The notes under the pieces were generated by a model, which saw nothing but the letters and a program-made list of their open reading frames with translations, was not told the DNA's origin and searched no databases. Both the position numbers and the translations under genes were made by a program. Of a stretch of 64,000 nt of DNA, positions 12,955-51,334 are shown one piece after another. This DNA is from Candidatus Sericytochromatia bacterium (GTDB lineage: Bacteria; Cyanobacteriota; Sericytochromatia; S15B-MN24; JAQBPE01). How positions within the stretch are numbered: the first letter of the stretch is position 1; every line of letters begins with the position of its first letter. The DNA is taken from positions 14,653-78,652 of the forward strand of contig JAYKHR010000145.1 of assembly GCA_035285125.1 (NCBI GenBank). Direction: 5' to 3'.

Positions 12955-12974
12955 GGCGCGCCCGCGCCGGGCAC

Positions 12975-14792
12975 CTAGCCCCCGAGCAGCCGGTGGCTGC
13001 GGGAGATGAAGCGCGTCAGCTCTTCACCCTTCAGGCCCTCGTGGGCGAGGCGGGCAAGGTCGTGCACGTGCTCGGCCAGATCCTGGGCCTTCGCCGGGTC
13101 CTCGGTGCCGAGCAGACGCTGCACCACCGGGCTGTTGGCGTTGAGCACCAGGGTCTTGCGGGTGGGCAGGTCGAGGCGGTCCTTCCACATCGCAGACATG
13201 TCCGACATGCGCCGCTCCATCTCGCCCTGCGTGATGAGGCCCGAGATGTCTTCCGACTTGAGGCGCTGCACCTCGATGGCGACACCGCGCTCCTTGAGCA
13301 GGCGCTCGGCGGCCTCCTTGATCTTCTCGTCCTGGGTCTTGCCGTCCGCGTCCACGACCTGGGCCGCGCCCTTGTCCACGAGCTGGTCCGAGAGCCCCGC
13401 GTCGACGCGCTTCCACTTCACCTCGCGGCGCTTGGTCTCGAGCAGGTGGATGAAGTGCACGTCGAGCGGGCCGTGCGTGTACAGGGCCTCGAGGCCCTGC
13501 TCCTTGAAGAGCGTGACGTAGGTGGTCTGGGCCTCCCCCGCCTCGGCATAGTAGACGGTGTTCTCCGCCTGCTCCTTGTTGCGCGCGAGGTACTCCTCGA
13601 CGGTGGTAAAGCCGCCCTGGGTCGACTCGAAGAGCACGGCCTCGCTGGCGGCCTCGTGGAACTTCTCGTCCTCGAGCATGCCGAACTTCACGAAGGGGTG
13701 GATGTCGTTCCAGTAGCCCTCGTACTGCTCCCGCTGGGAGCGATACAGCTGAACGAGGCGGTCTGCGACCTTCTTGGTGATGTGGCCGGCGATCTTCTTG
13801 ACGTAGGGATCGTTCTGCAGCATCGACCGGCTCACGTTGAGCGGGATGTCCGGGCAGTCGATCATCCCCTTGAGCACCATCAGGAACCGGGGGATGACGT
13901 CCTGGACGTTCTCCGTCACGAAGACGTTGTTGCAGTAGAGCTGCACCTGGCCCTTGGCGCCGTCGAACTCGTGCTTGAAGCGCGGGAAGAACAGCACGCC
14001 CTGCAGGCGGAAGGGGTAGTCGACGTTCAGGTGGATCCAGAACAGGGGCTCCTCCTCGAACGGGTAGGCGGCCCGGTAGAACGCCAGGTAGTCCTCGTCC
14101 TTCAGGCTCGCGGGCGCCTGGGTCCAGATCGGCGCGCTGCCGTTGATGTGGGCGCCGTCCAGGAGGATGGAGACGGGCAGGTACTTCGCGTACTTCTCCA
14201 GCACGTGGCGGACGCGCACCGCGTCCAGGAACTCGGTGCTCTCCGCGTTCAGGTGCAGCACGATGGCCGTGCCACGCTCGGCCCTGTCATGGGCGCCGAG
14301 CGTGAACTCCAGGCCGCCCTCGCTCACCCAGTGGCAGGCCTCGGCGTCGGCCTTGTAGCTGCGGGTGAAGATCTCGACCTTGTCGGCGACCATGAAGGCG
14401 GAGTAGAAGCCGAGGCCGAAGTGGCCGATGATCGCGTTCTGCTCGGCGTTGACCTCGTAGCGCTTGACGAAGTCCTGGGCGCCGGAGAAGGCCACGGTGT
14501 TGATGTACTGCCGCACCTCGTCGGCCGTCATGCCGATGCCGTTGTCGGAGATCGTGAGGGTCTTGGCGTCCTTGTCGAGCGTCACCTCGACGCGGAACTC
14601 GCCGAGCTCCCCGAGCCCCTCGACCAGGGCGACGTGCTTCAGCTTCGACACGGCGTCGACCGCGTTGCTGACCAGCTCGCGCAGGAAGATCTCGTGGTCG
14701 GAGTAGAGCCACTTCTTGATGATGGGGAGGAGGTTCTCGGCGTGGATCGAAAGCTGGCCACGCTCGGCCGTGGCGGCGGTGTCGACGGACAT
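12975..14792 (-). CDS. htpG: molecular chaperone HtpG (Hsp90)
   Basis: LYSDHEIFLRELVSNAVDA, DNGIGMT, IGHFGLGFYSAFMVA, PLNVSRSMLQ. Confidence 0.97.
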   Translation of the reverse strand: MSVDTAATAERGQLSIHAENLLPIIKKWLYSDHEIFLRELVSNAVDAVSKLKHVALVEGLGELGEFRVEVTLDKDAKTLTISDNGIGMTADEVRQYINTVAFSGAQDFVKRYEVNAEQNAIIGHFGLGFYSAFMVADKVEIFTRSYKADAEACHWVSEGGLEFTLGAHDRAERGTAIVLHLNAESTEFLDAVRVRHVLEKYAKYLPVSILLDGAHINGSAPIWTQAPASLKDEDYLAFYRAAYPFEEEPLFWIHLNVDYPFRLQGVLFFPRFKHEFDGAKGQVQLYCNNVFVTENVQDVIPRFLMVLKGMIDCPDIPLNVSRSMLQNDPYVKKIAGHITKKVADRLVQLYRSQREQYEGYWNDIHPFVKFGMLEDEKFHEAASEAVLFESTQGGFTTVEEYLARNKEQAENTVYYAEAGEAQTTYVTLFKEQGLEALYTHGPLDVHFIHLLETKRREVKWKRVDAGLSDQLVDKGAAQVVDADGKTQDEKIKEAAERLLKERGVAIEVQRLKSEDISGLITQGEMERRMSDMSAMWKDRLDLPTRKTLVLNANSPVVQRLLGTEDPAKAQDLAEHVHDLARLAHEGLKGEELTRFISRSHRLLGG

Positions 14793-14866
14793 GGGACGCA
14801 GGGGCTCCGGGGTCGGGCAGGCGCGAGGCGCCGGCCAGGCGGGTCTCAACGCCATGGTTCATATCG

Positions 14867-14889
14867 ACTTGACAATGGTTTTGTCAAGT
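14867..14889. promoter_or_regulatory. perfect inverted repeat (operator and/or back-to-back -35 boxes) between htpG and the kinase gene
   Basis: ACTTGACAA-TGGTT-TTGTCAAGT in an AT-rich patch. Confidence 0.65.
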
Positions 14890-14979
14890 ATCATCCTCGC
14901 GGCGCGATAAAGGGCCGGGCTCAGGGCCCGGCTGCCGCCACCGGACCGGTCGAGCGGCCGGCTTCCGGGTAAAACCCTC

Positions 14980-17900
14980 ATGATGGAAGACCTGCCACGG
15001 CCCTTCACGGCGCGCTACCGCCTCCTGAACGCCCTCGGGGAGGGGGCAATGGGGATGGTCTACCGCGCGTCGGACCTGCTGCGGGAGCGCAAGGAGTGCG
15101 CCCTCAAGGTGCTCAAGCCGGCGGGCGACGGCGCGGACGCGGCCCGCCGGCGCTTCCGCGCCGAGTTCCACGCGATGGCGTGGCTCAACCACCCCAACAC
15201 GGTGCACGTCTACGAGTACGGCGAGCTGCCCGACGGCACCGTGTTCATCGTGATGGAGATGGTGCCGGGGCAGTCGCTCTCGGACGTCATCGGCGATCGG
15301 CCCGTGCCGCTCGCGACCTTCTACCCCCTGCTGATCCAGCTGCTGCAGGCCCTCGACTACATCCATGCCCGCCGCTACCTGCACCGAGACATCAAGGCCG
15401 AGAACATCCGCGTGCGCCCGGACGGCCTGCTGAAGCTGATGGACTTCGGGCTGATGGGCCGGATCGGCCAGGTGCCGCTCGAGGGGCTGTGCGGCACGCT
15501 CCACTACATGGCCCCGGAGCTGCTGCGCGACGGCGGCTGGACACCCGCCACGGACCTGTACGCGGTGGGCTGCCTGGCCTACGAGATGCTCACGGGCCGG
15601 CTCCCCTTCCTGGGCGAGGCCTCCGCCGTGGCGCGGGGCCACCTTGAGGCGGAGCCGACCTCGCTGCGAACCCTCCGGCCCGACGCGGCCGTCGGGCTGA
15701 TCAAGCTGGTAGAGCGCCTGCTGGCCAAGGACCCGGCCCGGCGCCCCCACACGGCCGGTGATGCCCTCAACGACCTCGCCGCCATCACGGGCATCGCCCT
15801 CACGCGCGAGACGCGTGACCAGCAGCTGAGCTTCCTGGAGACCAGCGGGCTGGTGGGCCGGGAGGCCGAGCTCGAGCAGCTCGACGGCGTGCTCCGGCAG
15901 GCCCTGCACGGCACCGGCACGACGGTGATGCTGGGAGCCCCCTCGGGGCTTGGCAAGTCCCGCCTGCTGCAGGAGCTCGAGGTGCGCGCGCAACTGCAGG
16001 GCTTCGTCGTGCTGCGCGGGCGCTGCCTCGGCGAGGAGCAGGCGCCCTGGGAGCCGATCCGTACGGCCCTGCGGGGGGCCCTCGCGCACGGCTCGCAAGA
16101 GGTCCGGGATCGCCACCAGCCCGCCATCCGGGCACTCTACCCCGAGCTGGCGGGCTCTGGCGTCACGGTGCTCACGCCGGTGCAGACCGACGACCTGGTC
16201 GCCTGGCTGGAGGAGCTTTCCGGCACCCACCCCCTGCTGCTCGTGCTTGACGACATTCAGCTGGCCGACCCGCAGACCCTCGGCATGTTCAACGCGGCCG
16301 CGCGCCGCCTGCGGGGCCTGAACGTGCTGTGTGTCGCGACCTTCCCCGACGACGAGACGCCGGCGGGCAGCCCCGTGTGGCAGCTGCTGGAGGAGGGCGT
16401 CGCGACGCCCATGCGCCTGACGCCCCTGGACCGCAACGGCCAGGCAGCGCTCGTGGCGGCGATGCTGCCTGGCACCCGCGTGCCGGAGGCCTTCACCGAC
16501 GCCCTGTACCGGGCGACGGGCGGCAACCCGCTGTTCACCAAGGAGGCCCTCAAATCGCTGGTCGAGGATGGCCACCTCACGCGCCAGGGTGGGGCCTGGC
16601 GCTTCCCGGCCGACCTGGTGGTGCTTGGCGATCTGGAGCGCGTCGAGGAGACCATCCGACGGCGCCTGGGGCACCTGGGTCCCGAGGCCCTGCAGCTGCT
16701 CCAGGCCGCAGCCGTGCTCGGCCACCAGTGGACGCTGCCCACCCTGGCCTTCGTGGCCGAGGCGGACGAGGATCAGCTCTTCGCCGGGCTCGTGGACCTC
16801 ACGGCGCGGCAGCTCCTCGCGCTGGACATGGCCGGCCACTACGGGTTCTTGCACGACCGGGTGCGGGAGGTCGCCTATGCCGACATCCCCCCGGCGCTGC
16901 GCAAGGAGATGCACATGCGGGCCGCGGAGCGGCTCGAGCTCGAGCACGCGACGACGCCGATGCTGGCTGCCGGCGAGCTCGCCCGTCACCACTTGCGCAG
17001 CGACGAGCCTGCCAACGCCTACCCCTGGCTGCTGCTGGCCGGCGAGCAGGCCGAGCAGGCGGGCACGACGTACGTCGCGCTGGAGCACCTCCGCGACGCC
17101 GAGTCTGCCCTGGCCGACCTGCGGGGAGACCGCACCGCGGAGCGCCTGGCGCTCTGGCTGCGGATTGGGACCCTGGCCGTGGACCTCTCCCCTGGCGTCG
17201 CCGCCGAGATGCTGGATCGGGCGGCGGGCGCCCTGGAGGCCGAGCCGGGCCGCGCGCTGCCGCTTCTGCGCAAGCAGGGCCTGGAGGAGCAGGACCTGCT
17301 GGCGCTGCACGCGCGCGCGCTGGGCACCCTGGGCGAGTCCCGAGAGGCCCTGCGGCTCGCCGAGCGCATGGCGAGCCCCCAGCCAGAGGGCCTGCAGGCC
17401 GACCGTCCGCTGGTGGACCTGGCGCGCTTCGGGCCCTTGCTGGTCTCGGGCCGCATCCCGGAGCTGGTGGAGACGGCGCGTCGCACGGCCAGGCTGGTGG
17501 GGGGGCGGCTCCCGCCGTACTCGTCGCCCATGCTGGCGACAGCCTGGCGAGAGGCGCTCTTGATGCAGAACGCGGTGGCCTTCCAGGGGGAGCGGCCGAG
17601 CCCGGTGCTGCGCGAGCAGGCGCTGGCGCTGGCCCAGGAGGCCGGTGACGAGGACGCCCTGGCGCCGTGGACCAGCCTGGGGCTCTGGGCGGCCTGGTCC
17701 GGCCACCCTGAGGAGGCCGAGGCCGTCATCGAGCGCACCATGCGCAAGACCCGGCGGATCGGGGCCCCGCCGAGCGTGTGGGTGCTGTACCTCCGGCCCT
17801 ACATGCGCTGGCAGCAAGGCGAGCTGCGCCCGGCCCTCGAGCAGCTGGAACGGAGCCTGATCGCCCACCCTCAGTGGCGTGAGCACGCCGTCCCCTTCAG

Positions 17901-18498
17901 CCTGGGGCTGGCGCTCCGGGGGCAGCTGCTCGCTGACCTCGGACGCATCGGCGAGGCCCAGCAGGCGCTGGTCGAGATGGTGGAGCAGGCCCGCAGCCGG
18001 GATCACGGGCTGGCGATCATGCACGGGCTTTGCACGCTCGGCCATGCGCTCATCGGGGGGGGGCGCCTCACCGAGGCGGGCTTCGTCTTCCTGACGGCCC
18101 GGGAGATGGCCACGGGAGAGACCTACCGCAACCCCATGATCGAAGCCCTGACGGCGCTGGGGCTGGGACGCTGCGCCTGCGTGCTCGGAGACCCGCGCGG
18201 CGTCGCCCTGCTGGATGAGGCCCTCACCATCGCCTGCCGCCCCGAGCTCGACAACCGCTTCGTGCAGGCCCACGCCCAGAGGGAGCGCGGCAAGGCCCTC
18301 GCAGCGCTCGGCGAGCAGCCCCGCGCGATGCTGGCCTATACCGAGGCCGGGCGACTGTTTCACGGGATGCGCAACGGCCACTGGCTGCACATCGTGAACG
18401 TCGAACTCGCCGCGCTGCGGCAGGCCCCGGCCGCCGGCTCGGCGGCGGGCGACACCACATTGGAAGCCCGCTACGAGCGCTTCAAGCGCCTGATCTGA
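14980..18498 (+). CDS. Ser/Thr kinase - STAND (AAA_16-like) ATPase - TPR protein, paralog 1
   Basis: GEGAMG, HRDIKAEN, DFG, YMAPE; LVGREAE, Walker A GAPSGLGKS, Walker B LLVLDD, TGGNPLF. Confidence 0.92.
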   Translation: MMEDLPRPFTARYRLLNALGEGAMGMVYRASDLLRERKECALKVLKPAGDGADAARRRFRAEFHAMAWLNHPNTVHVYEYGELPDGTVFIVMEMVPGQSLSDVIGDRPVPLATFYPLLIQLLQALDYIHARRYLHRDIKAENIRVRPDGLLKLMDFGLMGRIGQVPLEGLCGTLHYMAPELLRDGGWTPATDLYAVGCLAYEMLTGRLPFLGEASAVARGHLEAEPTSLRTLRPDAAVGLIKLVERLLAKDPARRPHTAGDALNDLAAITGIALTRETRDQQLSFLETSGLVGREAELEQLDGVLRQALHGTGTTVMLGAPSGLGKSRLLQELEVRAQLQGFVVLRGRCLGEEQAPWEPIRTALRGALAHGSQEVRDRHQPAIRALYPELAGSGVTVLTPVQTDDLVAWLEELSGTHPLLLVLDDIQLADPQTLGMFNAAARRLRGLNVLCVATFPDDETPAGSPVWQLLEEGVATPMRLTPLDRNGQAALVAAMLPGTRVPEAFTDALYRATGGNPLFTKEALKSLVEDGHLTRQGGAWRFPADLVVLGDLERVEETIRRRLGHLGPEALQLLQAAAVLGHQWTLPTLAFVAEADEDQLFAGLVDLTARQLLALDMAGHYGFLHDRVREVAYADIPPALRKEMHMRAAERLELEHATTPMLAAGELARHHLRSDEPANAYPWLLLAGEQAEQAGTTYVALEHLRDAESALADLRGDRTAERLALWLRIGTLAVDLSPGVAAEMLDRAAGALEAEPGRALPLLRKQGLEEQDLLALHARALGTLGESREALRLAERMASPQPEGLQADRPLVDLARFGPLLVSGRIPELVETARRTARLVGGRLPPYSSPMLATAWREALLMQNAVAFQGERPSPVLREQALALAQEAGDEDALAPWTSLGLWAAWSGHPEEAEAVIERTMRKTRRIGAPPSVWVLYLRPYMRWQQGELRPALEQLERSLIAHPQWREHAVPFSLGLALRGQLLADLGRIGEAQQALVEMVEQARSRDHGLAIMHGLCTLGHALIGGGRLTEAGFVFLTAREMATGETYRNPMIEALTALGLGRCACVLGDPRGVALLDEALTIACRPELDNRFVQAHAQRERGKALAALGEQPRAMLAYTEAGRLFHGMRNGHWLHIVNVELAALRQAPAAGSAAGDTTLEARYERFKRLI

Positions 18499-18519
18499 CG
18501 GCGGGGTATACGGTCCTAG

Positions 18520-18975
18520 ATGGCCCTGACCCTTGCCCCTCGTCCGAACCCGGCCACCTGGCTGTGGCTGCTCTCCGCCCTGTTCCTGGCACGCGTGCTA
18601 GGGCAGATGGCGGTGGCCTTCGCGGGCGTGACATGGCTGCCTCCGATGCCCGAGTGGTACTCCGGGCTGCTGCCCTACCCGGTGCTGCTGCCGACCCAGT
18701 GGCTCATCTTGAGCCTGATGCTCCACCTCAACCGCCAGGCCACCCGCCAGCAGGGCTGGGCCACGGTGCTGCGGCCGCGGCTCGGCCGGGGCCTGCTGGC
18801 CTTCGCGGCCCTTTACGCGGGCGGGATGGTGGTGCGCTACGTCGTGAGCGGCGAGCTGCACCCTGAGCGCCGCTGGTGGCCCCCGGGCAGCATCCCGATC
18901 GTGTTCCACCTGGTGCTCGCCCGCTACCTCGCCGTCGTCGCCAGCGTCTGCCGGCAACCGCTGGAGGCGCGATGA
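18520..18975 (+). CDS. 4-TM membrane protein
   Basis: Hydrophobic helices; WLPPMPEWYSGLLPYPVLL; ATGA-coupled to the next gene. Confidence 0.75.
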   Translation: MALTLAPRPNPATWLWLLSALFLARVLGQMAVAFAGVTWLPPMPEWYSGLLPYPVLLPTQWLILSLMLHLNRQATRQQGWATVLRPRLGRGLLAFAALYAGGMVVRYVVSGELHPERRWWPPGSIPIVFHLVLARYLAVVASVCRQPLEAR

Positions 18976-20747
18976 GGTCGGCCGCATTGCTGCTCGCCGG
19001 CCTGACGCTGGCGGACGTCGTGAGCTGGCTGCCCGCGGACCTCACGCTGGCGCTCGTGCAGGGCCCCCTGGGCGTGCGCCCCCCCGCGCACGCCATCACG
19101 ACCGAGGAGGTCGTCGACATCCCGATGCGCGACAGCGTCAAGCTCGCAGCCACGGTCAGCCACCCTGCCGCGCCCGGGCCTCACCCGACGCTGATGGTGC
19201 GCCTGCCCCTGTCGCAGACCAGGCTGCACCGGGCCTTTTCGGAGCTGCTGCGGACCTTCTGGGGCACGCGTGGCTACCACGTGGTGATCGCCCCCGTGCG
19301 GGGCCGACCGCCCTCTGGCGGGCGCTTCTCACCCCTCGAGCCGGAGCGCGAGGACGGCCTCGACACGCTGGCCTGGCTGGCGCGGCAGCCCTGGTACGAC
19401 GGGCACCTCGGGATGTGGGGGGGCTCCTCGTTCGGCTACACCCAGTGGGCGGTGGCCGACCAGCCGGCCCCCATCGGCCCTTCGGCCTGCTGTATCCAGC
19501 TGTGCAGCACCAGCCACCGCGAGATGTTCCACCCCGGCGGCGCCTTCTCGCTGCAGTCGGCGCTCTACTGGGCCCGGACGGATCGAGGCGACGCCGACGT
19601 GTTCCCGAGCGAGGCCGAGCTCGCGCCAGGGCTGGCCGCCTGGCCGGTGCTCGACGCGGACGACCGCAGCGGCGGCCCGGCGCCCCCCTTCGACGACTGG
19701 GCGGGCCGCCGCGCCCCTGACGCTTACTGGCGGCGCATCGACGGCGACAGGCGGCCGGAGCGGGTGCAGGCCCCCGTGCTGCTGATGGCAGGCTGGCACG
19801 ACCCCTACCTGCCCACCCAGCTGGCCGACTTCGAACGGCTGCAACTCGAGGCCCCGGGCGACGTGGCCGCCGAGAGCCGCCTGATCGTGGGGCCCTGGAC
19901 GCACGCCCGCGAGGTCACGCTGCCGGGCGGCCATCAGCCGGGCGACTACAGGCTCGCGATGCTGGCCCAGAGCCTGCCGTTCTACGACCGCCTACTGCGG
20001 CCGGCCGGCGTGCCCGTGCCGGAGCCGGGCCCGCGGGTGTGGCTGTACGTGATGGGGGAGAACCGCTGGCGCGCGGAGGAGGCGTGGCCACTGGCCCGGG
20101 CCCGCCGCACGCCGCTATACCTCCACGCGGAGAGGCCCGCCAACACCGCTGACGGCGCTGGCCGGCTCGCCTGGGAGATGCCCGGGGACCAGCCGCCCGA
20201 CACCTTCGCCTACGACCCCCGCGACCCCGTCCCGAGCCGGGGGGGGGCCATGCTGGGGCTGCCCGGCGTGAACGGGGTGCAGCGGCAAAACGACGTCGAA
20301 CAACGGCGAGACGTGCTGGTCTACACCACCGAGGCGCTGCCGCGGCCGCTCGAGGTGACGGGCCCCGTGGAGGCCGACATGTGGGTGGAGACCACGGCGC
20401 CTGCCACCGACTTCACGGCCAAGCTGGTCGACGTGCTGCCGAACGGCGATGCCTTCAACGTGTCGGAGGGCATCCTACGGCGCAGCTACGCGGGGCAGCG
20501 CGGCCCCACGCGCATCACGGTCCAGCTCTGGCCGACCAGCTACGTCTTTCAGCCCGGTCACCGCCTGCGCCTCGAGGTCAGCAGCAGCAGCTTCCCGCGG
20601 TTCGATCGCCACCCCAACACGGCCGAGCCCGTCGAGACCGCCACCGCCGTGGCGATCGCGACCCAGCGCGTGCACCACTCGGCCCGCTGGCTCTCGGCGC
20701 TGTGGCTGCCCGTCATCCCCCCCACCAGCGAAGGAGAGAGCCCATGA
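18972..20747 (+). CDS. CocE/NonD family serine hydrolase
   Basis: IPMRDSVKL, GMWGGSSFG, AGWHD, IVGPWTH, RRDVLVYTT, SSSFPRFDRHPNT. Confidence 0.9.
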   Translation: MRSAALLLAGLTLADVVSWLPADLTLALVQGPLGVRPPAHAITTEEVVDIPMRDSVKLAATVSHPAAPGPHPTLMVRLPLSQTRLHRAFSELLRTFWGTRGYHVVIAPVRGRPPSGGRFSPLEPEREDGLDTLAWLARQPWYDGHLGMWGGSSFGYTQWAVADQPAPIGPSACCIQLCSTSHREMFHPGGAFSLQSALYWARTDRGDADVFPSEAELAPGLAAWPVLDADDRSGGPAPPFDDWAGRRAPDAYWRRIDGDRRPERVQAPVLLMAGWHDPYLPTQLADFERLQLEAPGDVAAESRLIVGPWTHAREVTLPGGHQPGDYRLAMLAQSLPFYDRLLRPAGVPVPEPGPRVWLYVMGENRWRAEEAWPLARARRTPLYLHAERPANTADGAGRLAWEMPGDQPPDTFAYDPRDPVPSRGGAMLGLPGVNGVQRQNDVEQRRDVLVYTTEALPRPLEVTGPVEADMWVETTAPATDFTAKLVDVLPNGDAFNVSEGILRRSYAGQRGPTRITVQLWPTSYVFQPGHRLRLEVSSSSFPRFDRHPNTAEPVETATAVAIATQRVHHSARWLSALWLPVIPPTSEGESP

Positions 20748-21454
20748 CGTTGCGCGCCGCCATCGAAGCCCGCTACGCGGCCAGCACCGCCGAGCTGGTC
20801 GCGCTCGCGGAGTTCCAGCGCCTCGAGCGCGGCGAGGTTGGCCACGAGGCCTACGACCTGTTCCTCGCCAACGTGATCCGGGCCCACCTCAAGAGCCCCA
20901 AGATCCTGGCGTTCCTGTACTCGGCCTCCGCGCCTAAGGCCAGCGCCGACCTGCTGCACAACATGCTGGAGGAGCTCGGCGTCGAGGAGGAGGACGGCAC
21001 CAGCCACCCGGAGCTGCTGCGCAGGCTCGCCCACGGCGCGGGGCTCGGCGAGGCCCTGCCGGGCCTGGAGCAGCTGGCCGACGACGACCTCAAGGCCATC
21101 GTCGTCGAGCCGCTGATGTACGGGACGCTGCGGGACGTGGCGCTCGCCGTGCTGATCGAGACGATCGCCTACGAGTGGATGCTGTCGCGCACCTCGGGGC
21201 GAATCGCCGCCTTCCTGCAGGTGCACCGGGGCCTCGATGCGGCCACGCTGGCCTGGTTCTCGCACCACTCGGAGGTGGACGTCCGGCATGCCGAGGAGGG
21301 CCTCGACGCCATCGCCCGCACCGTCGACTACTACGCGATCCCGACCGAGGACGCCGAGACCATCCTCGAGCTCACGATGCGCGAGAACGTGTTCATCAAG
21401 CGGTACTTCGGCGAGCTCACGCATGACCGCCTGGCCCTGATGGCGCGCCGATGA
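20744..21454 (+). CDS. heme-oxygenase-like diiron enzyme (HDO; CADD/PqqC/TenA fold)
   Basis: NMLEELG..SHPELL, AYE and HHSEVDVRH ligand pattern; ATGA overlaps on both sides. Confidence 0.8.
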   Translation: MTLRAAIEARYAASTAELVALAEFQRLERGEVGHEAYDLFLANVIRAHLKSPKILAFLYSASAPKASADLLHNMLEELGVEEEDGTSHPELLRRLAHGAGLGEALPGLEQLADDDLKAIVVEPLMYGTLRDVALAVLIETIAYEWMLSRTSGRIAAFLQVHRGLDAATLAWFSHHSEVDVRHAEEGLDAIARTVDYYAIPTEDAETILELTMRENVFIKRYFGELTHDRLALMARR

Positions 21455-22599
21455 GCCTCGTGGGCCTCGACCTCCACCTGCTCGGCATCCCGTTCGTCGA
21501 GAGCTTCAGCCACAGCGCCTCTGACCGGGCCTTCTCGGACACCGTGCTGGTGCGGGTGACCGACGCGGAGGGCCGCACGGGGTGGGGCGAGGGCATTGCC
21601 CGGGCCTACGTCACGGGCGAGACGCCGGAGGGGCTCGTGGCCCACCTGGCCGAGCGCCTCTGGCCGCTCGTCGCCGGCCGACCGCTGCCCGAGCTGCGCG
21701 GCCCTGAGGACCTGCTGGCGCTCGAGGCCTGGCTCCCCGACCTCGAGGAGCCGGGGGTCGTGGCCGCGCACGGCGCCCGCTGTGCGCTGGAGCTGGCGGT
21801 GCTGGACCTCGTGCTCAGGCGGCAAGGGATGCCGGCCTCCCGGCTGCTGCCGCCCGCCCGGCAGACGGTGACCTACTCCGGCGTGATCACGGCAGGGGAC
21901 CCGGCCCGGGCCGCCGTGCACGCGCGCCAGATGAAGCTGGTCGGGCTGCGCGAGGTGAAGGTCAAGGTCGGCGACCCGGACGACCTCGCCCGCGTCGCGG
22001 CGGTGCGACAGATCTGGGGCGAGGGCGTGGCGCTGCGCCTGGACGCCAACGCAGCCTGGGACCTGGAGACGGCCGTCGCGCGGCTGCAGGCGATGGCCTG
22101 CTTCGGGCCCGTGGCCGTCGAGCAGCCCCTGCCGCGCGGGCGGCTCGCTGACTGGCAGGCCCTGCGGGCCCGCGTGCCCGTGCCCGTGATGGTGGACGAG
22201 TCGCTCGTGACCGTCGCGGACGCCGAGGCGCTCATCCACGCCCGGGCCACCGACATGTTCAATGTTCGCGTCTCCAAGAACGGGGGCCTGGCCCGGGCAT
22301 GGCGCATCGCGAACCTCGCGCTGCGCGCCGGCCTGCGGGTGCAGGTGGGGGCGCAGGTCGGGGAGACGGCGCTGCTCTCAGCAGCCGGGCGTCACCTCGC
22401 GGCGGCCCTGCCGGAGCTGGCCCATGCGGAGGGCTCGTTCGGCACGCTGCTGCTCACGGAGGACGTCTCGGCCAGCCCCGTGAAGTTCGGCCACCGGGGC
22501 GAGGCCCCCCTGCTGCGCGGCCACGGGCTCGGCGTGGTGGTCGCGGAGGATCGCGTCGGGAAGTACACGCGGCTGCACCGGCACGAGGCAGCCCCGTGA
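21451..22599 (+). CDS. enolase-superfamily enzyme (muconate-lactonizing/dipeptide epimerase subgroup)
   Basis: KVKVG, LRLDANAAW, VEQP, MVDES, NVRVSKNGG. Confidence 0.88.
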   Translation: MSLVGLDLHLLGIPFVESFSHSASDRAFSDTVLVRVTDAEGRTGWGEGIARAYVTGETPEGLVAHLAERLWPLVAGRPLPELRGPEDLLALEAWLPDLEEPGVVAAHGARCALELAVLDLVLRRQGMPASRLLPPARQTVTYSGVITAGDPARAAVHARQMKLVGLREVKVKVGDPDDLARVAAVRQIWGEGVALRLDANAAWDLETAVARLQAMACFGPVAVEQPLPRGRLADWQALRARVPVPVMVDESLVTVADAEALIHARATDMFNVRVSKNGGLARAWRIANLALRAGLRVQVGAQVGETALLSAAGRHLAAALPELAHAEGSFGTLLLTEDVSASPVKFGHRGEAPLLRGHGLGVVVAEDRVGKYTRLHRHEAAP

Positions 22600-24290
22600 G
22601 GCCCTCGCCCGGCCTCCTGATCCGCGCGTTCGGTGCCCTGCGCTTCGCGCACTTCGAGCGGGCCTGCCAGGACCCCCGGGCGTCACAGGCCCGTGCGCTG
22701 GCCCGCTACACCCGGCTGGCCCACGACACGGCCTTCGGCCGCGCGCACGGGCTGACGCCCCACGAGACGCCCGAGAGCTTCGCGGCCAAGGTGCCGATCC
22801 GAGACTACGAGGGCTTCCGGCCCTACGTCGCCCGCACGATGGCCGGCGAGCCCCGCGTGCTCGCCCCCGACGCCCCCACGTGGTACGTCACGACCAGCGG
22901 CACCACGGGCGAGCCCAAGTACATCCCGGTCACGCCGCGCTGGTACGGGGCGCTGCGTCGCCAGCTCGGGCTCTGGCTGTACGGCGTGGCGCGCGACCAC
23001 CCGGGCACCTTCGACGGCGCCCTGCTCACGATCGTGAGCCCGGCCGTGGAGGGTCACACCGCCGCGGGCACGCCCTGCGGCTCGATGTCCGGGCTGACGA
23101 ACCAGCGGGCGCCCGGCTGGCTCCGCAGCCACTACGCGGTGCCGCAGGCGCTGGCCTGGATCGCCGACCACGAGGCCCGCTACGCGGCCTGTCTGCGCCT
23201 GGCGATGCAGCGGCCCCTGTCGCTGGTGATGACGCCCAACCCCTCGACGCTGCTGCGGCTCGCGGCCGTGCTGGAGGCTCAGGCGGATACGCTGCTGGCC
23301 GCCCTCGCGGCAGGGACGCTGGGCCAGCCGTGGCCGGCGCTCATGGACCTGCCGGGCGTGGACCCGGACGCCGTGCGCGAGGCCCTGACGACCCGCCTGA
23401 GCCCCGATCCGGCGCGCGCCCGCGCCATCGCCGCGCGGGCTTCCCGCGCCGGCAGGCTCCTGCCCGCCCATGTCTGGCCCGAGCTGCGCTTCATCGGCAC
23501 CTGGCTGGGGGGCTCCGTCGGCCTGCATGCCCCCCGGCTGCGGCAGGCCTGGGGCGAGACCGCGGCGATGCGTGACCTCGGCCTGCTCGCGAGCGAGGGC
23601 CGCCTGACGGTGCCACTCACCGACGACACTCCCGTCGGGCCCCTCGACGTGCTCGGGAACTACTACGAGTTCATCCCGGAGGACGCCCTCGACGCGCCAC
23701 ACCCGCCGGTGCTGGGGGCCCACCAGCTCGAAGTCGGCGCCCGCTACTACGTCATCCTGACGAGCGGCAACGGGCTGCCCCGGTACGACCTTCACGACGT
23801 GGTCGAGGTGCGCGGGCACCACCACCGCACGCCCTGCGTCGCCTTCCTGCGCAAGGGCCGCGACATGCTCAGCCTGACGGGTGAAAAGCTGCACGTGAAC
23901 CAGCTGCTCGCGGCGGTCGCTGCTGCCAGCGAGGCCGCGGGCCTGGGCGTGCGGCAGTGCCGCCTCGTGGGCGACGCGGCGGCCATCGCCTACGACTTGC
24001 TCGTCGAGCCCTGGGAGCCCCCGGGCGCCGCCGACGCGCTGCCGACCTTCGCCAGGGTGCTCGACGCCCGCCTCGCCGAGCTCAACGTCGAGTATGCCAG
24101 CAAGCGGGCCTCAGGCCGCCTGCCGGCGCCTCGGGTGTGCCTGATGCGCCCCGGCTGGTCGGAGGCGCTCACGGCCGTGGCCCTCGCGGCTGGCGTGCGG
24201 GACGCCCAGCTCAAGTGGAAGGTGCTGGCCGACGCTTGGGACGCGACGAGCCCGGCCTGGGTGGCCGAGGTGGCTGGAGACGCCCGGTAG
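22596..24290 (+). CDS. GH3 family acyl acid amido synthetase
   Basis: TAFGRAHG, VPIRDYEGF, TTSGTTGEPKYIP, LASEG, YYEFIP, RYDLHD, TGEKL; GTGA overlap. Confidence 0.9.
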   Translation: MRPSPGLLIRAFGALRFAHFERACQDPRASQARALARYTRLAHDTAFGRAHGLTPHETPESFAAKVPIRDYEGFRPYVARTMAGEPRVLAPDAPTWYVTTSGTTGEPKYIPVTPRWYGALRRQLGLWLYGVARDHPGTFDGALLTIVSPAVEGHTAAGTPCGSMSGLTNQRAPGWLRSHYAVPQALAWIADHEARYAACLRLAMQRPLSLVMTPNPSTLLRLAAVLEAQADTLLAALAAGTLGQPWPALMDLPGVDPDAVREALTTRLSPDPARARAIAARASRAGRLLPAHVWPELRFIGTWLGGSVGLHAPRLRQAWGETAAMRDLGLLASEGRLTVPLTDDTPVGPLDVLGNYYEFIPEDALDAPHPPVLGAHQLEVGARYYVILTSGNGLPRYDLHDVVEVRGHHHRTPCVAFLRKGRDMLSLTGEKLHVNQLLAAVAAASEAAGLGVRQCRLVGDAAAIAYDLLVEPWEPPGAADALPTFARVLDARLAELNVEYASKRASGRLPAPRVCLMRPGWSEALTAVALAAGVRDAQLKWKVLADAWDATSPAWVAEVAGDAR

Positions 24291-24331
24291 GCCCCTGGAT
24301 TTCTACACCCGGCTGCGATACAACCCCTCCC

Positions 24332-25543
24332 ATGCGCCGCCTCGCCCTGACGCTCGCCACCCTCGCGCTGTGCCCGACGGCCGCGCACGCAGCCGAGGAG
24401 CCCGATTTCTCGTGGCTCAACGGCGTGAACCCGCAGCGCGTGGCGCCGCTGCGCACGGGTCCGCTCACGTGGACCTTCCTGATCGACAGCTACTACGGGC
24501 AGGCGTTGAACCAGCCCGCTGACCACACGGTCTTCCCGACGACCACGGCCCCGCGCCACCACGAGTTCGCGCTGAACCTCGGGCTCGTCGGGCTGGAGGT
24601 CACGGAGCACGAGGGGCTGTTCGGCAAGCTGGTGTTCCAGGGCGGGACCTACGTCGACACGATCTTCGGCGGCGACCCGACGGTGAGCCGCGGCGCCTAC
24701 AACACGCTGGGCTCCTTGCGGCATGTCCAGCAGGCCTGGGCCGGCCACCGCTTCCCGGTGCTCTCGGGGCTGAACCTGGTAATGGGGCTGTTCCCGGCCT
24801 ACATCGGGCTCGACAGCTACATCCCGCAGGAGAACTGGAGCTACACCCACAACCTGTGCAGCGACTTCACGCCTTATTACTTGCAGGGCCTGATGGCGCA
24901 GCTCTTTCCGCGGCCGGAGCTCAAGACCGAGGTCTGGCTCGTCAACGGGTGGCAGACGCTCGGCAAGGTCGGCGAGGGCTTCGGCCTGGGCTACAGCGTG
25001 AACTGGCGGCCGCACGACCGCCTGAGCCTGACGCACAACGTCCTCGGCGGCCAACTGGGCGCGGACCCGACGCGCCACCGCTTCTTCACCGACAACTCGG
25101 TGCAGTGGCGTTACGCCGTGCAACCCACGCCCTGGCTGCGTCACCTGGCGCTGGCGGCGGTGGCGGACCTCGGCCACGAGGGCGCCTCCACCCAGGCGGG
25201 AGGGGCCCCTGCGACCTTCTTCGGCGGCGGCGGGCTGCTGCACCGCGCCGTCCTCGACGACAACTGGGCGGTGACGCTGCGGGCGAGCACCTTCAACGAC
25301 CCCCAGCGGCTCGTGGCGCTGGTGCCCCCGTCGGGGGCCGGCGGGGGCGCCCCGCTGTGGGCCAGCGAGGCCACGCTGACGCTCGATCACAGCCCGTCAC
25401 CCTGGATGCTGTACCGGCTGGAGGCCCGCCAGGACTGGGCCAGCACGCCCTATATCGCGGGGCCGGGCGGCGTGACGGGGAACGCCCCGGACCTGCGCAC
25501 GGCCGGGGGGCGGGTGGTGTGGAATGCGACGGTGAGGTTCTAG
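24332..25543 (+). CDS. outer-membrane beta-barrel porin (BBP2/DUF1597-like)
   Basis: Signal peptide; ENWSYT, DFTPYYLQG, LVNGWQ; C-terminal ATVRF. Confidence 0.8.
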   Translation: MRRLALTLATLALCPTAAHAAEEPDFSWLNGVNPQRVAPLRTGPLTWTFLIDSYYGQALNQPADHTVFPTTTAPRHHEFALNLGLVGLEVTEHEGLFGKLVFQGGTYVDTIFGGDPTVSRGAYNTLGSLRHVQQAWAGHRFPVLSGLNLVMGLFPAYIGLDSYIPQENWSYTHNLCSDFTPYYLQGLMAQLFPRPELKTEVWLVNGWQTLGKVGEGFGLGYSVNWRPHDRLSLTHNVLGGQLGADPTRHRFFTDNSVQWRYAVQPTPWLRHLALAAVADLGHEGASTQAGGAPATFFGGGGLLHRAVLDDNWAVTLRASTFNDPQRLVALVPPSGAGGGAPLWASEATLTLDHSPSPWMLYRLEARQDWASTPYIAGPGGVTGNAPDLRTAGGRVVWNATVRF

Positions 25544-25585
25544 GCCCGCGCGCCCGGAAGCGGTCGGGAGCCCAGGCAGCCCCCG

Positions 25586-26026
25586 TCAGGCGATCGCCTC
25601 GGCCAGCGCCACAATGACCCCCGCCGGCCCTCGCATGTAGCAGAGCCTGTAAAACGCCTCGTACTGCACCACCTCGCCCATCAGCACCGCGCCGTGGGGG
25701 CGCAGGCGGGCCATGGCGGCATCGAGGTCGTCGACCTCGAACATGAGCTGCCGCAGGCCCAGCGCGTTCGGCGGGGCGATCGCCGGCTGCAGCGGGACCA
25801 GCCCCGGGTGGCGGTACCGCGTGAGTTCCAGCTGCCCATGGCCGTCTGGCGTCCGCATCATCGCGATGTCCGCCTGACAGCCCTCCAGCCCACACAGGCG
25901 GTCGACCCAGGGGCCCTCGACGGCAGCCTCGCCCACCAGGCTCAGGCCGAGCGCCTCGAAGAAGGCGATGGCCGCCGGGAGGTCATCGACGACCACGGTG
26001 GTGTGGTCGAGCTTCAGGCGCGTCAT
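25586..26026 (-). CDS. VOC/glyoxalase family protein
   Basis: VVVDDLPAAIAFFEALG, MRTPDGHGQLEL, YRLCYMRGP; extended -10 TGCTACACT 6 nt before ATG. Confidence 0.9.
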   Translation of the reverse strand: MTRLKLDHTTVVVDDLPAAIAFFEALGLSLVGEAAVEGPWVDRLCGLEGCQADIAMMRTPDGHGQLELTRYRHPGLVPLQPAIAPPNALGLRQLMFEVDDLDAAMARLRPHGAVLMGEVVQYEAFYRLCYMRGPAGVIVALAEAIA

Positions 26027-26084
26027 GCCCCCAGTGTAGCAGGCCCGGTGGCGTGCCCTGCTGGCTCCAGGGTATAGAGCGGGT

Positions 26085-29000
26085 GTGACAACGCCCCCCC
26101 CCGATCGGTTCACCAACCGCTACCGCGTGCTCGACACCCTCGGCGAAGGCGCCATGGGCGTGGTGTATCGCGTCGCCGACGTGCTGGACGGTCGGGCGGA
26201 ACGCGCGTTGAAGGTGTTCAAGCCCGCGGCGGAGGCCGACGACGCCGAGGCCCGCCTGCGGTTCCGGGCCGAGTTCCACGCGATGTCCCGGCTGGGTCAC
26301 CCCAACACGACGGAGGTGCTTGACTACGGCGAGCTGCCGAACGGCACGCTGTACATCGTGATGGAGCTCGTGCCCGGCCAGGAGCTCATGGAGGTGATCG
26401 GTGGCCGCCCGATGCCGCTCGAGGCGTGCTACCCGGTGCTGGCGCAGGTGCTGCAGGCCCTGGACTACATCCACGCCCGGCAGTTCCTGCACCGCGACAT
26501 CAAGGCGGCCAACGTCCGCGTCCGGCCGGACGGCGTGGTGAAGGTGATGGACTTCGGCCTGATGGGCCACGCCTCCCACGAGACCTCGCGGGCCGTCAGC
26601 GGCACGCCGGGCTACATGGCCCCGGAGATCCCGCTGGGCGGCGCCATCACCCCCGCGGTGGACCTCTATGCCGTCGGCTGCCTGGCCTACGAGATGCTCA
26701 CGGGCACGCTCCCGTTTTCGGGCTCCCTGGGCGAGGTGGTCCGCGGCCACATGCGCGAGCCGCCGCCGTCGCTGGCGGCGCGTCGCCCCGAGCTGCCCCA
26801 GCCCCTGATCCGCCTCGTGGAGCGGCTGCTCGAGAAGGACCCCGCCCGCCGGCCACCGTCGGCCGGGCACGCCCTCGAGGAGCTCAGCGCCATCGCGGGC
26901 CTGCGCGCCACGCGCGCGAACGTGGAGCAGCAGCGCTCGTTCCTGGTCGCCAGCGAGCTTGTGGGGCGCGAGGCCGAGCTCGCCCGCCTGCAGGCGGGGC
27001 TGGACGACGCACTCGCGGGCCGCGGCAGCGCCCTGATGCTCGGGGCGCCCGCGGGCACCGGCAAGAGCCGGCTGGTGGCCGAGCTGAAGCTGCGGGCGCA
27101 GCTGGCAGGCTTCGTCGTGATGCACGGCCACTGCCACGAGGGCGGCATGGCGCCCTTCGAGGCCCTGCGCGAGGCCATCCGGCCGGCCCTGGCGCACGGG
27201 ACGCAGGAGGAGCGCGAGCAGTTCGCAGCACCCCTGGCGGCCCTCTTCCCCGAGTTCGGTGCGCCGGCGCAGGTGCGGGGCGCTCTGGTGGTCGAGCCTC
27301 TGCTGGCGTGGCTCGGGGGCCTGTCCGCGCGTTTGCCCCTGCTGCTCGTCGTCGATGACATGCACTGGGCCGATCAGGAGACGGTCGACGTCGTGAACCG
27401 CGGCATCCGCGAGGTGGGGGCGCACCGCGTGCTGTGCGTCTGCACCTTCCGCGACGACGAGACGCCGCCGGGCAGCAGCCTCTGGCACACGCTGGAGGAG
27501 GGCGCGAGCGAGCGCCTGAGCCTCGGCCCGCTCGATCGTGACGGCCAGGCGGCGCTGCTGACCTCGATGCTGCCGGGCGCCCAGGTCCCGGCAGGCTTCT
27601 CGGAGGGCCTGCTCCAGGCCACGGGCGGCAACCCGCTGTTCGTGCAGGCGGCCCTGAACGTGCTCCTCGAGGAGGGCCACCTGACACGCGACGGGAACAG
27701 CTGGCGCTTCCCGCTCGATCCCTCGGTGCTGGCCGGGCTCGAGCGGGTCGAGGCCAGCATCCAGCGCCGGCTGGCCCACCTGTCCCCCCGCTCGCGCGAG
27801 GTGCTCGACTGCGCCGCGGTGCTCGGCCGGCAGTGGACGCTCTGCACGCTGTCGGCCGTCACGGGGCTCGACGAGGACGCACTGTTCTGTGCCCTCGAGG
27901 ACCTGACGCACCGGCAGCTGCTGGCGCGAGGCGAGACGGGGGCCTGCCACTTCCCCCACGACCGCGTGCGGGAGGTGGCCCACGCGGCGCTGTCGCCAGC
28001 GGCCCGCGCAGCCCTGCACCTGCAGGCCGGCGAGGCCCTCGCCGCCAGGTCCGACGCCGACGCCCACGCCCGCGAGCTCGGTCGCCACTTCCTCGAGGGC
28101 GGTGACGACGCCCGGGCCTGGCGCTGGTTGGCGCGGGCCGGCCACCAGGCGCTGGCCGCCGGGGCGAGCTACACGGCGCTCGAGCACTTCCGCGACGCCG
28201 ACCAGGCCCTGGCCCGCCTGCCGGGGGACCACCTCGCCGACCAGCTGCCGATGTGGCTGCTGGTGGGGCAGCACGGCTTCAACATCGCCACGGGCCTGGC
28301 CGCGCAGATGCTGCAGCGGGCGCTGGCCGCCCTGGAGGCGGACCCGGCCCGCGTCGCGGAGGTCCTGCGGCCGCTGGGGCGCAGCGTGGGGGAGATCCAC
28401 GTCCTGTACGCGGCCGCGATGGGGCTGTGGGGGGAGCCCGCCCTGGCCCTGGCGGCCGTGGCGAAGCTGGAGGCGATCGCCCCGCGCGACGGCTCGCCCG
28501 CGAGCGCCATGCCCCTGGTGGCCGCGCTGCCCGCGCTGTTCGTGGCCGGCCGGCTCGATGCCACGCTGGCCCGGGCCAGGATGGCATCGAGCCTGCTCGC
28601 GGGGCCCCTGTCTCCCGGCACGCCCGCCCTGGTGCACACCATGCGGGTCGCGGCGATGGGCGCCCAGAACGTCCTGGCCTTTCAGGGCCTCCGGCCAGAC
28701 CCCGCCATCCGTGATCAGGCCCTCGCTTACGCGCGCGAGCTCGGCGACGACGACCCGTACCTGCCCTGGTTCTACTTCGGCGTCTGGGCCGCCTGGACGG
28801 GGCACAGCGCAGAGCTCGACGTCTACCTGGAGCGGACGGCGCGGAAGAACCGCAAGCTGGGTGGCCCCCCCCACGTCTGGCTGCTGTACCTGGCCCCCTA
28901 CATCCGCTGGCTGCGCGGCGAGACCGAGGGGGCGCTCGAGCAGATCGAGCGCAACCTCGCCATCCACCCCCACCTGAGCGAGCATGGGCTCACCCACATG

Positions 29001-29600: not shown

Positions 29601-29607
29601 GGCCCGG

Positions 29608-30456: not shown

Positions 30457-30463
30457 CGCCGCC

Positions 30464-34219: not shown

Positions 34220-34321
34220 AGCCTCTTTTGGGAATGGCTGACGGCGCGGGATCGGGGCCTGGCTCGCCGGGTGGGGCGCCCCTGCCCCGCCGGGGTATGA
34301 GGGGGGCGAGGAGGGAGGGCC

Positions 34322-36139: not shown

Positions 36140-36663
36140 GCCGTTCATTCAGCTGGCCCAACCTCGCCGCGGCGTTCGCCGCCGTCGGGCTGCTGGCCGT
36201 GGGGCTGTCGTGGGGCCTCCAGCCGGCCACCCCGGGGGCAGGGGGGCTCGCCGTGGGCGGCCCGGCCCCGCCGCTGGTGGGCAAGACCCTCGCGGGCCCC
36301 ACCTTCGACCTGGCCGCGTTGCGTGACAAGCGAGCCGCGCTGGTGGTGTTTTGGGCCTCCTGGTGAGGGGGCTGTCGTGCGGAGGCTCCGCACGTCGAGG
36401 CGCTGCACCGCGCTTACAAGGACCGCTCGCTCGCCGTGGTGGGCGTGAACCTGCAAGACACGCCCGAGGGGCGTGAGGCCGTGATCCGCGAGGCCGGCCT
36501 CAGCCACCCGCAGGTGCTCGACGACGGTGGCGCCCTCGCCCAGGCCTACGGGGTGCGCGCCCTGCCGACGGTGGTGCTGCTCGACCGGCAGGGCGTGGTG
36601 CGGCACGTGGGGCATGGGCTGCCAGAGCGAGACGTGCTGGAGCGGGTGGTGGCCGGACCTTGA
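36136..36663 (+). CDS. TlpA/ResA-like thioredoxin-fold protein, probable selenoprotein (UxxC)
   Basis: VVFWASW-TGA(36364-36366)-GGC-RAEAP continues in frame to VGVNL...YGVRALPTVVLLDRQG; AGGAGG RBS; ATGA coupling to the DUF885 gene. Confidence 0.85.
36374..36396 (+). promoter_or_regulatory. bacterial SECIS-like hairpin
   Basis: CGTGCGGA-GGC-TCCGCACG stem starting ~10 nt after the in-frame UGA, with G in the apical loop. Confidence 0.7.
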
Positions 36664-50782: not shown

Positions 50783-50804
50783 CGCGCCCGACAGGAGGCC
50801 CCGG

Positions 50805-51320: not shown

Positions 51321-51334
51321 AGGAGGGCCCGGCC

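Follow-up and report, generated by a model that had tools for sequence, protein, structure and literature searches.

Introduction

In the aminolipid pathway of the planctomycete Singulisphaera acidiphila, the GH3-family enzyme OlsH makes N-acyl ornithine from ornithine, a fatty acid and ATP, and its operon also encodes a methyltransferase (OlsG) and an O-acyltransferase of the alpha/beta-hydrolase fold (OlsI) (PMC12493201, in the part available). OlsH, as presented there, is the single characterised bacterial GH3 enzyme that we met in the literature. Here we describe another bacterial operon with a GH3 gene. It lies in a 64,000-nucleotide stretch of DNA from Candidatus Sericytochromatia bacterium (GenBank assembly GCA_035285125.1, contig JAYKHR010000145.1, positions 14,653-78,652 of the forward strand), hereafter the window, and consists of five genes, g1 to g5. 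Three of these, g3 to g5, form a conserved cassette in which the GH3 enzyme is joined by a heme-oxygenase-like diiron enzyme (HDO) and by a member of the enolase superfamily. Formation of an amide with ATP by a GH3 enzyme would be common to both systems. In the Ols pathway the product is the substrate of a protein with the alpha/beta-hydrolase fold, and the operon holds a methyltransferase gene, as it does in some lineages that carry the cassette. However, the Ols operon has neither HDO nor enolase, and the CocE/NonD protein found with the cassette is optional and matched no OlsI model.

The superfamilies to which the proteins g2 to g5 belong were known already, as was a GH3-based aminolipid operon. 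HDOs such as CADD, UndA, BesC, SznF, HrmI, FlcD/E, AetD and MboA share with g3 a seven-helix heme-oxygenase-like fold and a dimetal site of histidine and carboxylate ligands. About 12 HDOs of known reaction stand among more than 10,000 members, and for none of these validated enzymes does the available part of the source mention a partner from the enolase or GH3 families (PMC13108848); g3 has both. Among enolase-superfamily members, the N-succinyl-amino-acid racemases and dipeptide epimerases (2p88, YkfB/1jpm, 3jva) align with g4 over their full length, share with it both lysines and the three metal ligands, and use N-acylated amino acids, the class of compound that GH3 enzymes make. The plant GH3 enzymes (JAR1, GH3.8, GH3.12/PBS3) have the same three-domain architecture as g5, and two-step adenylation and amidation are expected alike; however, they conjugate hormones, are encoded outside operons and are distant from g5 in sequence. 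We found no published description of an HDO or an enolase-superfamily enzyme combined with a GH3 ligase, in a search that did not extend to subscription journals and supplements. The new elements reported here are the fixed HDO-enolase-GH3 set, a natural HDO-enolase fusion, a bounded orphan clade of HDOs and the membrane protein family of g1.

A fixed three-gene core and an optional membrane module

The five genes are open frames on the + strand that together span positions 18520-24290 of the window, each with one terminal stop:

18520-18975, + strand: g1, 151 aa, protein with four transmembrane segments (4-TM); optional membrane module
18972-18975, + strand: g1/g2 start/stop overlap, ATGA
18972-20747, + strand: g2, 591 aa, CocE/NonD serine hydrolase or acyltransferase; optional membrane module
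20744-20747, + strand: g2/g3 start/stop overlap, ATGA
20744-21454, + strand: g3, 236 aa, HDO (heme-oxygenase-like "iron-containing redox enzyme"); core
21451-21454, + strand: g3/g4 start/stop overlap, ATGA
21451-22599, + strand: g4, 382 aa, MLE-subgroup enolase-superfamily enzyme; core
22596-22599, + strand: g4/g5 start/stop overlap, GTGA
22596-24290, + strand: g5, 564 aa, GH3-family acyl acid amido synthetase; core

An original prediction, made from the sequence letters, had read this region as a five-gene coupled operon. The four 4-bp (A/G)TGA overlaps on which it relied, at 18972, 20744, 21451 and 22596, are all present (three ATGA and one GTGA), and its family calls (membrane protein, CocE, HDO, MLE-type enolase, GH3) proved correct by Pfam and NCBIfam matches and hydrophobic segments. 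Moreover, the N-termini at the overlap starts agree with those of homologues in the consensus lines of the alignments.

Conservation was analysed in a set of loci retrieved with an alignment of 19 HDO homologues as query, one genome being taken per species. The search gave 135 pattern matches, 118 of which encode a relative; of these, the best 80 were retained together with flanks of up to 10 kb, and their genes were counted by tblastn with the window proteins. The enolase gene lies directly downstream of the HDO gene, on the same strand, in 75 of the 78 loci with room for it, the exceptions being L010 (where the gene is split), L073 and L076. The GH3 gene takes the third position in 62 of the 65 loci where space allows, the misses being L061 (with a GH3 piece upstream instead), L064 and L076. 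A 4-bp overlap of HDO stop and enolase start is possible in 28 of the 56 other loci in which both open reading frames (ORFs) were called, and one between enolase and GH3 in 12 of 50. Since the HDO-enolase-GH3 order recurs in other phyla, the arrangement of g1-g5 goes beyond chance, and the co-occurrence of the three enzymes elsewhere, on which the original prediction depended, is strongly borne out.

The membrane module behaves differently. In 32 of the 80 loci g1 homologues occur next to the cassette, with 31 sharing its strand, and are placed directly after GH3, directly before HDO, or in the order g1-CocE-HDO (the window and L011). CocE orthologues (45-54% identity) were found in 16 of 80 loci; four further CocE matches, at 26-28% identity, are unrelated paralogues. 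The porin, desaturase and VOC genes that lie downstream of the operon in the window were detected by tblastn in none of the 80 loci. The 1111 ORFs of these loci were also clustered without reference to the window, and beyond the five genes no family recurs across phyla: the next largest clusters (8 and 6 loci) consist of antisense ORFs over GH3 or HDO genes in G+C-rich genomes. Finally, four relatives from the order or family of the window genome hold the three-gene core only. These locus counts and the ORF clustering establish the operon as a fixed HDO-enolase-GH3 core with an optional 4-TM/CocE module, in surroundings that are otherwise local to the window. The five genes of the window thus form one coupled operon, as had been proposed, but not an indivisible one, given the core-only relatives.

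Two genes in the locus set look broken: the enolase gene of L010 (10708-11840) and the CocE gene of Calothrix sp. PCC 7716 (L019:13957-15286) each appear to be split into two ORFs, where a frameshift or an assembly error is possible.

Distribution and phylogeny of the cassette

By record title, the cyanobacterial carriers include Calothrix, Dulcicalothrix, Leptolyngbya, Nodosilinea, Halomicronema, Phormidium and others. Further carriers belong to Candidatus Sericytochromatia, Rokuibacteriota, Methylomirabilota, Pyrinomonadaceae, Actinomycetota, Myxococcota, Omnitrophota, Binatia and Planctomycetota, together with one alphaproteobacterium. Several are cultured and publicly held, namely Calothrix sp. 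PCC 7103 and PCC 7716, Dulcicalothrix desertica PCC 7102, Leptolyngbya sp. PCC 6406 and several Nodosilinea. The cassette is rare: the HDO was present in 9 of 41 relatives searched (the window genome counted), in 4 of 23 when only high-quality genomes are considered, and in 9 of 401 genomes of a phylum-wide sample, all nine in the class of the window.

A FastTree phylogeny was computed from the concatenated core proteins of the window and of 64 loci, namely those in which each of the three proteins is at least 85% complete; the other 16 loci were excluded. In this tree every large phylum is confined to one side of a branch. The window nests within the Sericytochromatia/Tanganyikabacteria loci (support 98), and this group joins Thermoleophilia, other Actinomycetota, Rokuibacteriota and Binatia, not the oxygenic cyanobacteria, which cluster with Omnitrophota and Acidobacteriota. 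This placement makes the host a probable non-photosynthetic cousin of the cyanobacteria rather than a myxobacterium, to which its 73% G+C and numerous kinases might have pointed. The cassette seems to have been inherited vertically within phyla, following old transfers between phyla.

The HDO belongs to a bounded orphan family

g3 matched PF14518 with an E-value of 1.1e-16 (61.6 bits against a cut-off of 28.9), and its AlphaFold2 model (pLDDT 87) is all-helical, which places it in the HDO fold. Foldseek returned the Chlamydia protein CADD (CtCADD) first, at an E-value of 6.5e-6, a TM score of 0.67-0.76 and 19-20% identity, followed by PqqC, HrmI, RohS, FlcD, UndA and BesC. The residues E144, H175, D179 and H182 of g3 align with E142, H174, D178 and H181 of CADD and are invariant. 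In the first ligand helix, H72, E76 and E77 are invariant among the 19 HDO homologues; HMMER pairs E81 and H88 of CADD with E81 and H88 of g3; 18 of the 19 sequences retain H88, whereas E81 is variable. The full set of three histidines and three carboxylates is therefore predicted in g3, with first-helix ligands present but their exact identity uncertain.

When g3 was searched with phmmer against 1.84 billion cluster representatives, 106 matched at E<=1e-3, 71 at 1e-10 and 32 at 1e-30, and family members are 50-60% identical across phyla. By these sequence comparisons the g3 family is a sharply bounded island inside the HDO superfamily. Assignment to the CADD-type para-aminobenzoate (pABA) synthases was rejected, as g3 scores 26.9 bits on TIGR04305 against a cut-off of 200. 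The sacrificial Tyr27 of CADD likewise seems to lack a counterpart in g3. The mutant Y27F of CADD, which lacks the sacrificial tyrosine, yields no pABA (PMC9522330, in the part available), and the position of Tyr27 corresponds to F24 in g3, a residue that is Phe in 18 and Trp in one of the 19 family members; this match depends on an ungapped three-residue extension of the CADD alignment.

The enolase-superfamily enzyme lies on the racemase/epimerase side of the MLE subgroup

Both MR_MLE domains of Pfam were detected in g4 (MR_MLE_C at 2.3e-43). The strand-2 KxK motif, the Asp/Glu/Asp metal ligands and the strand-6 lysine that characterise the MLE subgroup are all present and line up with their counterparts in MLE and YkfB; indeed, K170, K172, D198, E224, D249, E250 and K276 show no variation among 18 sequences. 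The g4 family is accordingly predicted to hold the full catalytic set of the subgroup, with two lysine bases. Three residues of the capping domain, R26, R51 and Y53, are also invariant in these sequences and are likely specificity residues.

A profile of the g4 family matched 2p88 best (6.8e-61), then the dipeptide epimerases 3jva, 3q45 and 1jpm; the muconate cycloisomerases came below these racemases and epimerases, at 1e-42 to 2e-46. We take 2p88 to be BC0371 of B. cereus, an N-succinyl-Arg/Lys racemase. BC0371 is described as an N-succinyl-L-Arg racemase that groups together with L-Ala-D/L-Glu epimerases without having three of their typical residues (PMC2948282, in the part available). No NCBIfam equivalog cut-off was reached by g4, the second-best match being the N-acetyl-D-Glu racemase DgcA. 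Muconate or chloromuconate cycloisomerase was rejected (TIGR02534, 162.8 bits against a cut-off of 334.95). The dipeptide (L-Ala-D/L-Glu) epimerases were rejected on NCBIfam scores (NF011708, 70.7 against 343; NF041118, 69.7 against 500) and on a local motif. In YkfB the DxD after strand 8 binds the ammonium group of the dipeptide, and this stretch, "fDfDa", aligns with "aEgSf" in g4, where E327 and S329 are invariant. On these comparisons g4 is best classed as a racemase/epimerase-side member of the MLE subgroup without an equivalog assignment. Its family always comes paired, and at times fused, with an HDO, a combination that we found described for no other member of the superfamily.

The GH3 enzyme

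All three GH3 models of Pfam, each with a cut-off of 23.6 bits, matched g5: PF03321 (GH3) at 192.8, PF23571 (GH3_M) at 63.3 and PF23572 (GH3_C) at 35.8 bits. The loop T100-S101-G102-T103-T104...K108 is invariant in 18 cassette GH3 proteins, as are many other residues; we take such a Ser/Thr-rich S/T-S-G-T-T...K loop to be the GH3 nucleotide-binding motif. The best solved relatives are the plant enzymes GH3.8, JAR1 and GH3.12, at 1.8e-22 at best. OlsH is the sole NCBIfam model matched by the cassette GH3 proteins, in 18 of 18 cases and with a best E-value of 1.2e-31. Equivalence to OlsH (NF052613) was nevertheless rejected for g5, which scores 108.5 bits against a cut-off of 620, with residues 23-231 as the best stretch. 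All together, the core enzymes carry intact catalytic residues and are inherited as a block.

The window genome also contains a second, partial GH3-like frame (G000:C96:4677-5747, minus strand), which shares 37% identity with g5 across residues 170-540.

Natural fusions and the membrane module

In two proteins, P0154 (619 aa) and P0159 (624 aa), the enolase is fused behind the HDO, and in P0154 this enolase part shares 47% identity with g4. Clustered at 90% identity, these fusions have 5 and 2 members of 618-624 aa, from several sources and in one case on a 289-kb contig. Because the clusters hold several sequences from several sources, the fusion is not a slip of gene calling. HDO and enolase are thus functionally close enough to be joined in one polypeptide, and the natural fusions point to a combined catalyst of which we found no description.

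Two further fusions involve g1. P0123 (741 aa) joins the g1 domain to an extra helix and CocE, and a 4-TM-CocE fusion is also found, as a lead, in an Atlas cluster of 53 members. P0127 (1004 aa) joins the g1 domain to a membrane fatty-acid hydroxylase and to a GH3 domain 36% identical to g5. Longer fused forms of GH3 were not returned by a search with g5, a weak negative, as that search also missed the known fusion P0127. Separately, a single sequence, P0188 (572 aa), fuses an enoyl-CoA hydratase (crotonase) to an HDO part 32% identical to g3.

g1 itself matched nothing in Pfam, even at an E-value of 10, nor in NCBIfam. It has four hydrophobic segments and a loop at 70-90 with five K/R residues, from which the positive-inside rule predicts that both termini are cytoplasmic. 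Its AlphaFold2 model (pLDDT 83.6) consists of four long helices, and R25, Q29, P41, Y53, Q60, Y99, R106, P115, P126 and H130 are invariant in the family. Structural comparison with VIA-align against 48,161 chains returned only generic helical hairpins (best Z 7.6, 63 residues, 2.5 A), and feature matches in the Atlas were to unnamed clusters only. An ICMT-type methyltransferase, which occupies the same slot in other loci, was rejected as the identity of g1 (hhalign probability 0.2%).

g2 is a CocE/NonD protein (TIGR00976, 4.8e-105, 352.7 bits against a cut-off of 66.3) with the Pfam domains Peptidase_S15 and PepX_C. All of 12 aligned sequences have S152 (GGSxFGY), D277 (GWxDP) and H311 (GPWxHA), which presumably form the Ser-Asp-His triad, to go by the CocE motifs GxSxG, GWxD and GPWxH. 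A hydrophobic segment spans residues 4-22, and an N-terminal hydrophobic stretch is present in all 12 aligned sequences; because of this one N-terminal helix, the catalytic domain may face the periplasm. The optional module could, by inference only, handle the product across or at the membrane.

Lineage-specific genes directly beside the cassette

Lineage-specific genes were found directly beside the cassette in 19 of the 80 loci. They encode LCM-family carboxyl methyltransferases (5 loci), CAT-like acyltransferases (5), ICMT/PEMT-type membrane methyltransferases (4), MMPL exporters (4), P450s (4) and proteins with a weak SRPBCC match below the Pfam cut-off (4). At L072:4476-9949, directly upstream of the three core genes and sharing their strand, lie genes for a ketosynthase, a protein resembling a ketosynthase or chain-length factor, an ApeP-type dehydratase and an NAD-dependent reductase; this set is aryl-polyene-like or type II fatty-acid-like. 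In L008, a fusion of MFS, acyltransferase and AMP-binding domains (LplT-Aas-like) stands beside the cassette. Although lineage-limited, the accessory genes suggest a hydrophobic product with a free carboxylate.

A variant labelled marine "deltaproteobacterial" (L061, L064, L073, L075 and L076) comes with an MMPL exporter and a P450 as well as an ICMT-type methyltransferase and a CAT-like acyltransferase. Within this variant, L061 has its GH3 gene upstream of the HDO gene, and L073 and L076 have neither enolase nor GH3 beside the HDO.

Proposed function of the cassette

An acyl-amide product had been proposed for this operon and is still the most economical reading; likewise, we found no characterised pathway that matches the cassette in the literature searched or in NCBIfam, in agreement with the earlier description of the pathway as a candidate undescribed one. 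Tentatively, and with somewhat less than even confidence, we propose that the core makes and tailors an N-acyl amino acid through GH3, enolase and HDO, the substrates, the order of the steps and the chemistry all being inferred. The GH3 enzyme would adenylate a carboxylic acid, which is probably hydrophobic, for instance a fatty acid, and couple the activated acid to an amino acid through the amine. An enolase-family enzyme of this kind requires a carboxylate with an alpha-proton. The enzymes nearest to the g4 profile use N-acylated amino acids, the product class of GH3, so an amide would be a fitting substrate for g4, which would abstract the alpha-proton beside the free carboxylate of the GH3 product. 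The outcome could be the D-epimer, as with N-succinyl-amino-acid racemases, or beta-elimination. The HDO, as the physical and functional partner of the enolase, would use O2 to oxidise this molecule too, for example through hydroxylation, desaturation or oxidative decarboxylation. Beta-hydroxylation by the HDO might precede an enolase-type dehydration that gives a dehydroamino acid; alternatively, epimerisation might precede oxidative decarboxylation, and our results favour neither order. Where present, the 4-TM protein and the anchored CocE would process the product at the membrane, either by hydrolysis or by an acyl transfer like that of OlsI in ornithine-lipid synthesis. The suggestion in the original prediction that CocE erases the product was a guess, with such a transfer equally open.

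If the product is indeed an acyl amino acid, its acyl group is probably lipid-like, given the OlsH-only matches of the GH3 proteins, the g1 membrane protein, the g1 fusions and the lipid-type neighbours. A more specific form of the proposal, which we consider possible but on balance doubtful, is a route to a membrane-associated N-acyl amino acid that is stereochemically or oxidatively altered, with HDO and enolase working as a two-domain catalyst on the GH3 product. Candidates for such a product are N-acyl-D-amino acids, N-acyl-dehydroamino acids and enamide lipids. If true, the reaction type and the enzyme partnership would be new to both superfamilies, and the product would represent a new class of lipoamino acid, or of surfactant or signal, in cyanobacteria and soil bacteria.

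Several observations weigh against an acylated, lipid-like product. The core contains no fatty-acid-activating or carrier gene, and the lipid-type neighbours are limited to the 19 loci above and absent from the four closest relatives of the window. P0123 and P0127 are known from one sequence each, and the likeness of g5 to OlsH may reflect nothing beyond shared bacterial GH3 ancestry. R26 and R51 of g4 would suit a polar or anionic substrate, for example an acyl-Glu or a succinyl amino acid, and CADD, the closest solved fold to g3, acts on a protein tyrosine. Lastly, the substrates given for validated HDOs in the available part of PMC13108848 are fatty acids or amino acids, with no N-acyl amino acid among them.

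That amino acids as well as fatty acids serve as HDO substrates (PMC13108848) also fits a soluble small metabolite, a reading that we judge unlikely yet the best of the alternatives. HDO and enolase would then convert an amino or aryl acid that GH3 conjugates to Glu or Asp, unless conjugation comes first, and the resulting compound might serve as an antimetabolite, bind metal or be cofactor-like, comparable to the benzoate- or isochorismate-glutamate conjugates of plant GH3.12/PBS3. The nearest HDO folds (CADD, PqqC, HrmI) are consistent with this, as are the presence of GH3.12, a "4-substituted benzoates-glutamate ligase", among the solved relatives of g5 and that of DgcA as second-best NCBIfam match of the enolase. 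In the L-Ala-D/L-Glu epimerase of B. subtilis, R24 binds the Glu side chain, and the invariant R26 of g4 lies two residues from it in the alignment. Moreover, the core proteins have no membrane segments, and the close relatives of the window do with the core alone. A soluble product, however, leaves unexplained the 4-TM protein of 32 loci, its fusion to GH3 and a membrane fatty-acid hydroxylase, and the recurrent ICMT-type methyltransferases, MMPL exporters, P450s and ketosynthase genes.

The nearness of the g4 profile to N-succinyl-amino-acid racemases brings to mind another route, in which a succinyl-transferase, such a racemase and a desuccinylase together interconvert D- and L-amino acids. 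On this model the cassette would be a stereo-conversion or salvage shunt: GH3 N-acylates, the enolase racemises, CocE deacylates one enantiomer and the HDO consumes the product. CocE/NonD enzymes do hydrolyse esters and amides, the triad of g2 is intact, and the scheme fits the earlier idea of a cluster that makes, modifies and erases its metabolite. We nevertheless hold it improbable, as CocE accompanies the cassette in 16 of 80 loci only and is not an obligatory step, the hydrophobic N-terminus of g2 and the extra helix of P0123 suggest a CocE across the membrane from the ATP-using GH3, and spending ATP on each racemisation turnover would be costly.

Whichever product is made, the cassette ties an orphan HDO clade to an amide-making ligase and an enolase-family enzyme. 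Because the chemistry of these partners constrains the substrate, deorphanising the HDO becomes a small, defined screen. With cultured cyanobacteria and uncultured soil phyla among the carriers, a possible new class of lipid or metabolite would have a wide environmental range.

Genomic setting of the operon in the window

The surroundings of the operon comprise the following features:

12975-14855, - strand: HtpG/Hsp90 gene, upstream of kinase 1
14980-18498, + strand: kinase 1 (Ser/Thr kinase-AAA_16-TPR, STAND-type), stop 21 bases before the g1 start
24329-25543, + strand: BBP2/OmpL-like porin, starting 38 bases past GH3
25586-26116, - strand: VOC/glyoxalase gene, downstream of the operon
26085-29600, + strand: kinase 2, 51% identical to kinase 1 over the full length
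29608-30456, + strand: DesA-type desaturase (Pfam)
about 30464-34160, - strand: kinase 3, a third paralogue, after the desaturase
50151-53677, + strand: 2Fe-2S and molybdopterin xanthine-dehydrogenase-type pair, farther downstream

The 21-bp gap after the first kinase-STAND paralogue and the porin, second paralogue and desaturase downstream are thus all as first reported. The flanking kinases had also been cast as sensors of the operon product, a notion that fails on conservation with the cassette. By tblastn, kinase 1 found weak, partial matches in 5 of the 80 loci, none in a fixed position. The 4.25-Mb window genome contains 21 kinase matches, about 17 of them reaching beyond the kinase domain and three lying in the window within 20 kb; with so many in the genome, their adjacency to the operon is unremarkable. 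A hormone-like signal sensed by the two flanking kinases is therefore very improbable, even though the operon follows kinase 1 so closely, between two paralogues and with a third beyond them on the minus strand, as the flanking pair occurs in none of the four same-order relatives (one of which has a 27%-identical match to the NTPase region, on the other strand) and kinase neighbours are expected by chance at this density.

A long minus-strand ORF at 30464-36148 overlaps a DUF885 gene (34322-36139, + strand); because of this overlap, the true kinase 3 gene is taken to be shorter than the ORF.

Rfam gave no matches in window positions 12000-31000, and neither a sigma-70-like promoter nor an intrinsic terminator was found in 14000-30800, where the tools are weak at 73% G+C. 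In seven cyanobacterial loci, the sole Rfam match lies away from the cassette: the nitrogen-stress small RNA NsiR1 (52.1 bits) at L016:8668-8718, in a Calothrix metagenome-assembled genome, about 1.3 kb upstream of the cassette and beyond lgt; this RNA is probably unrelated to the cassette.

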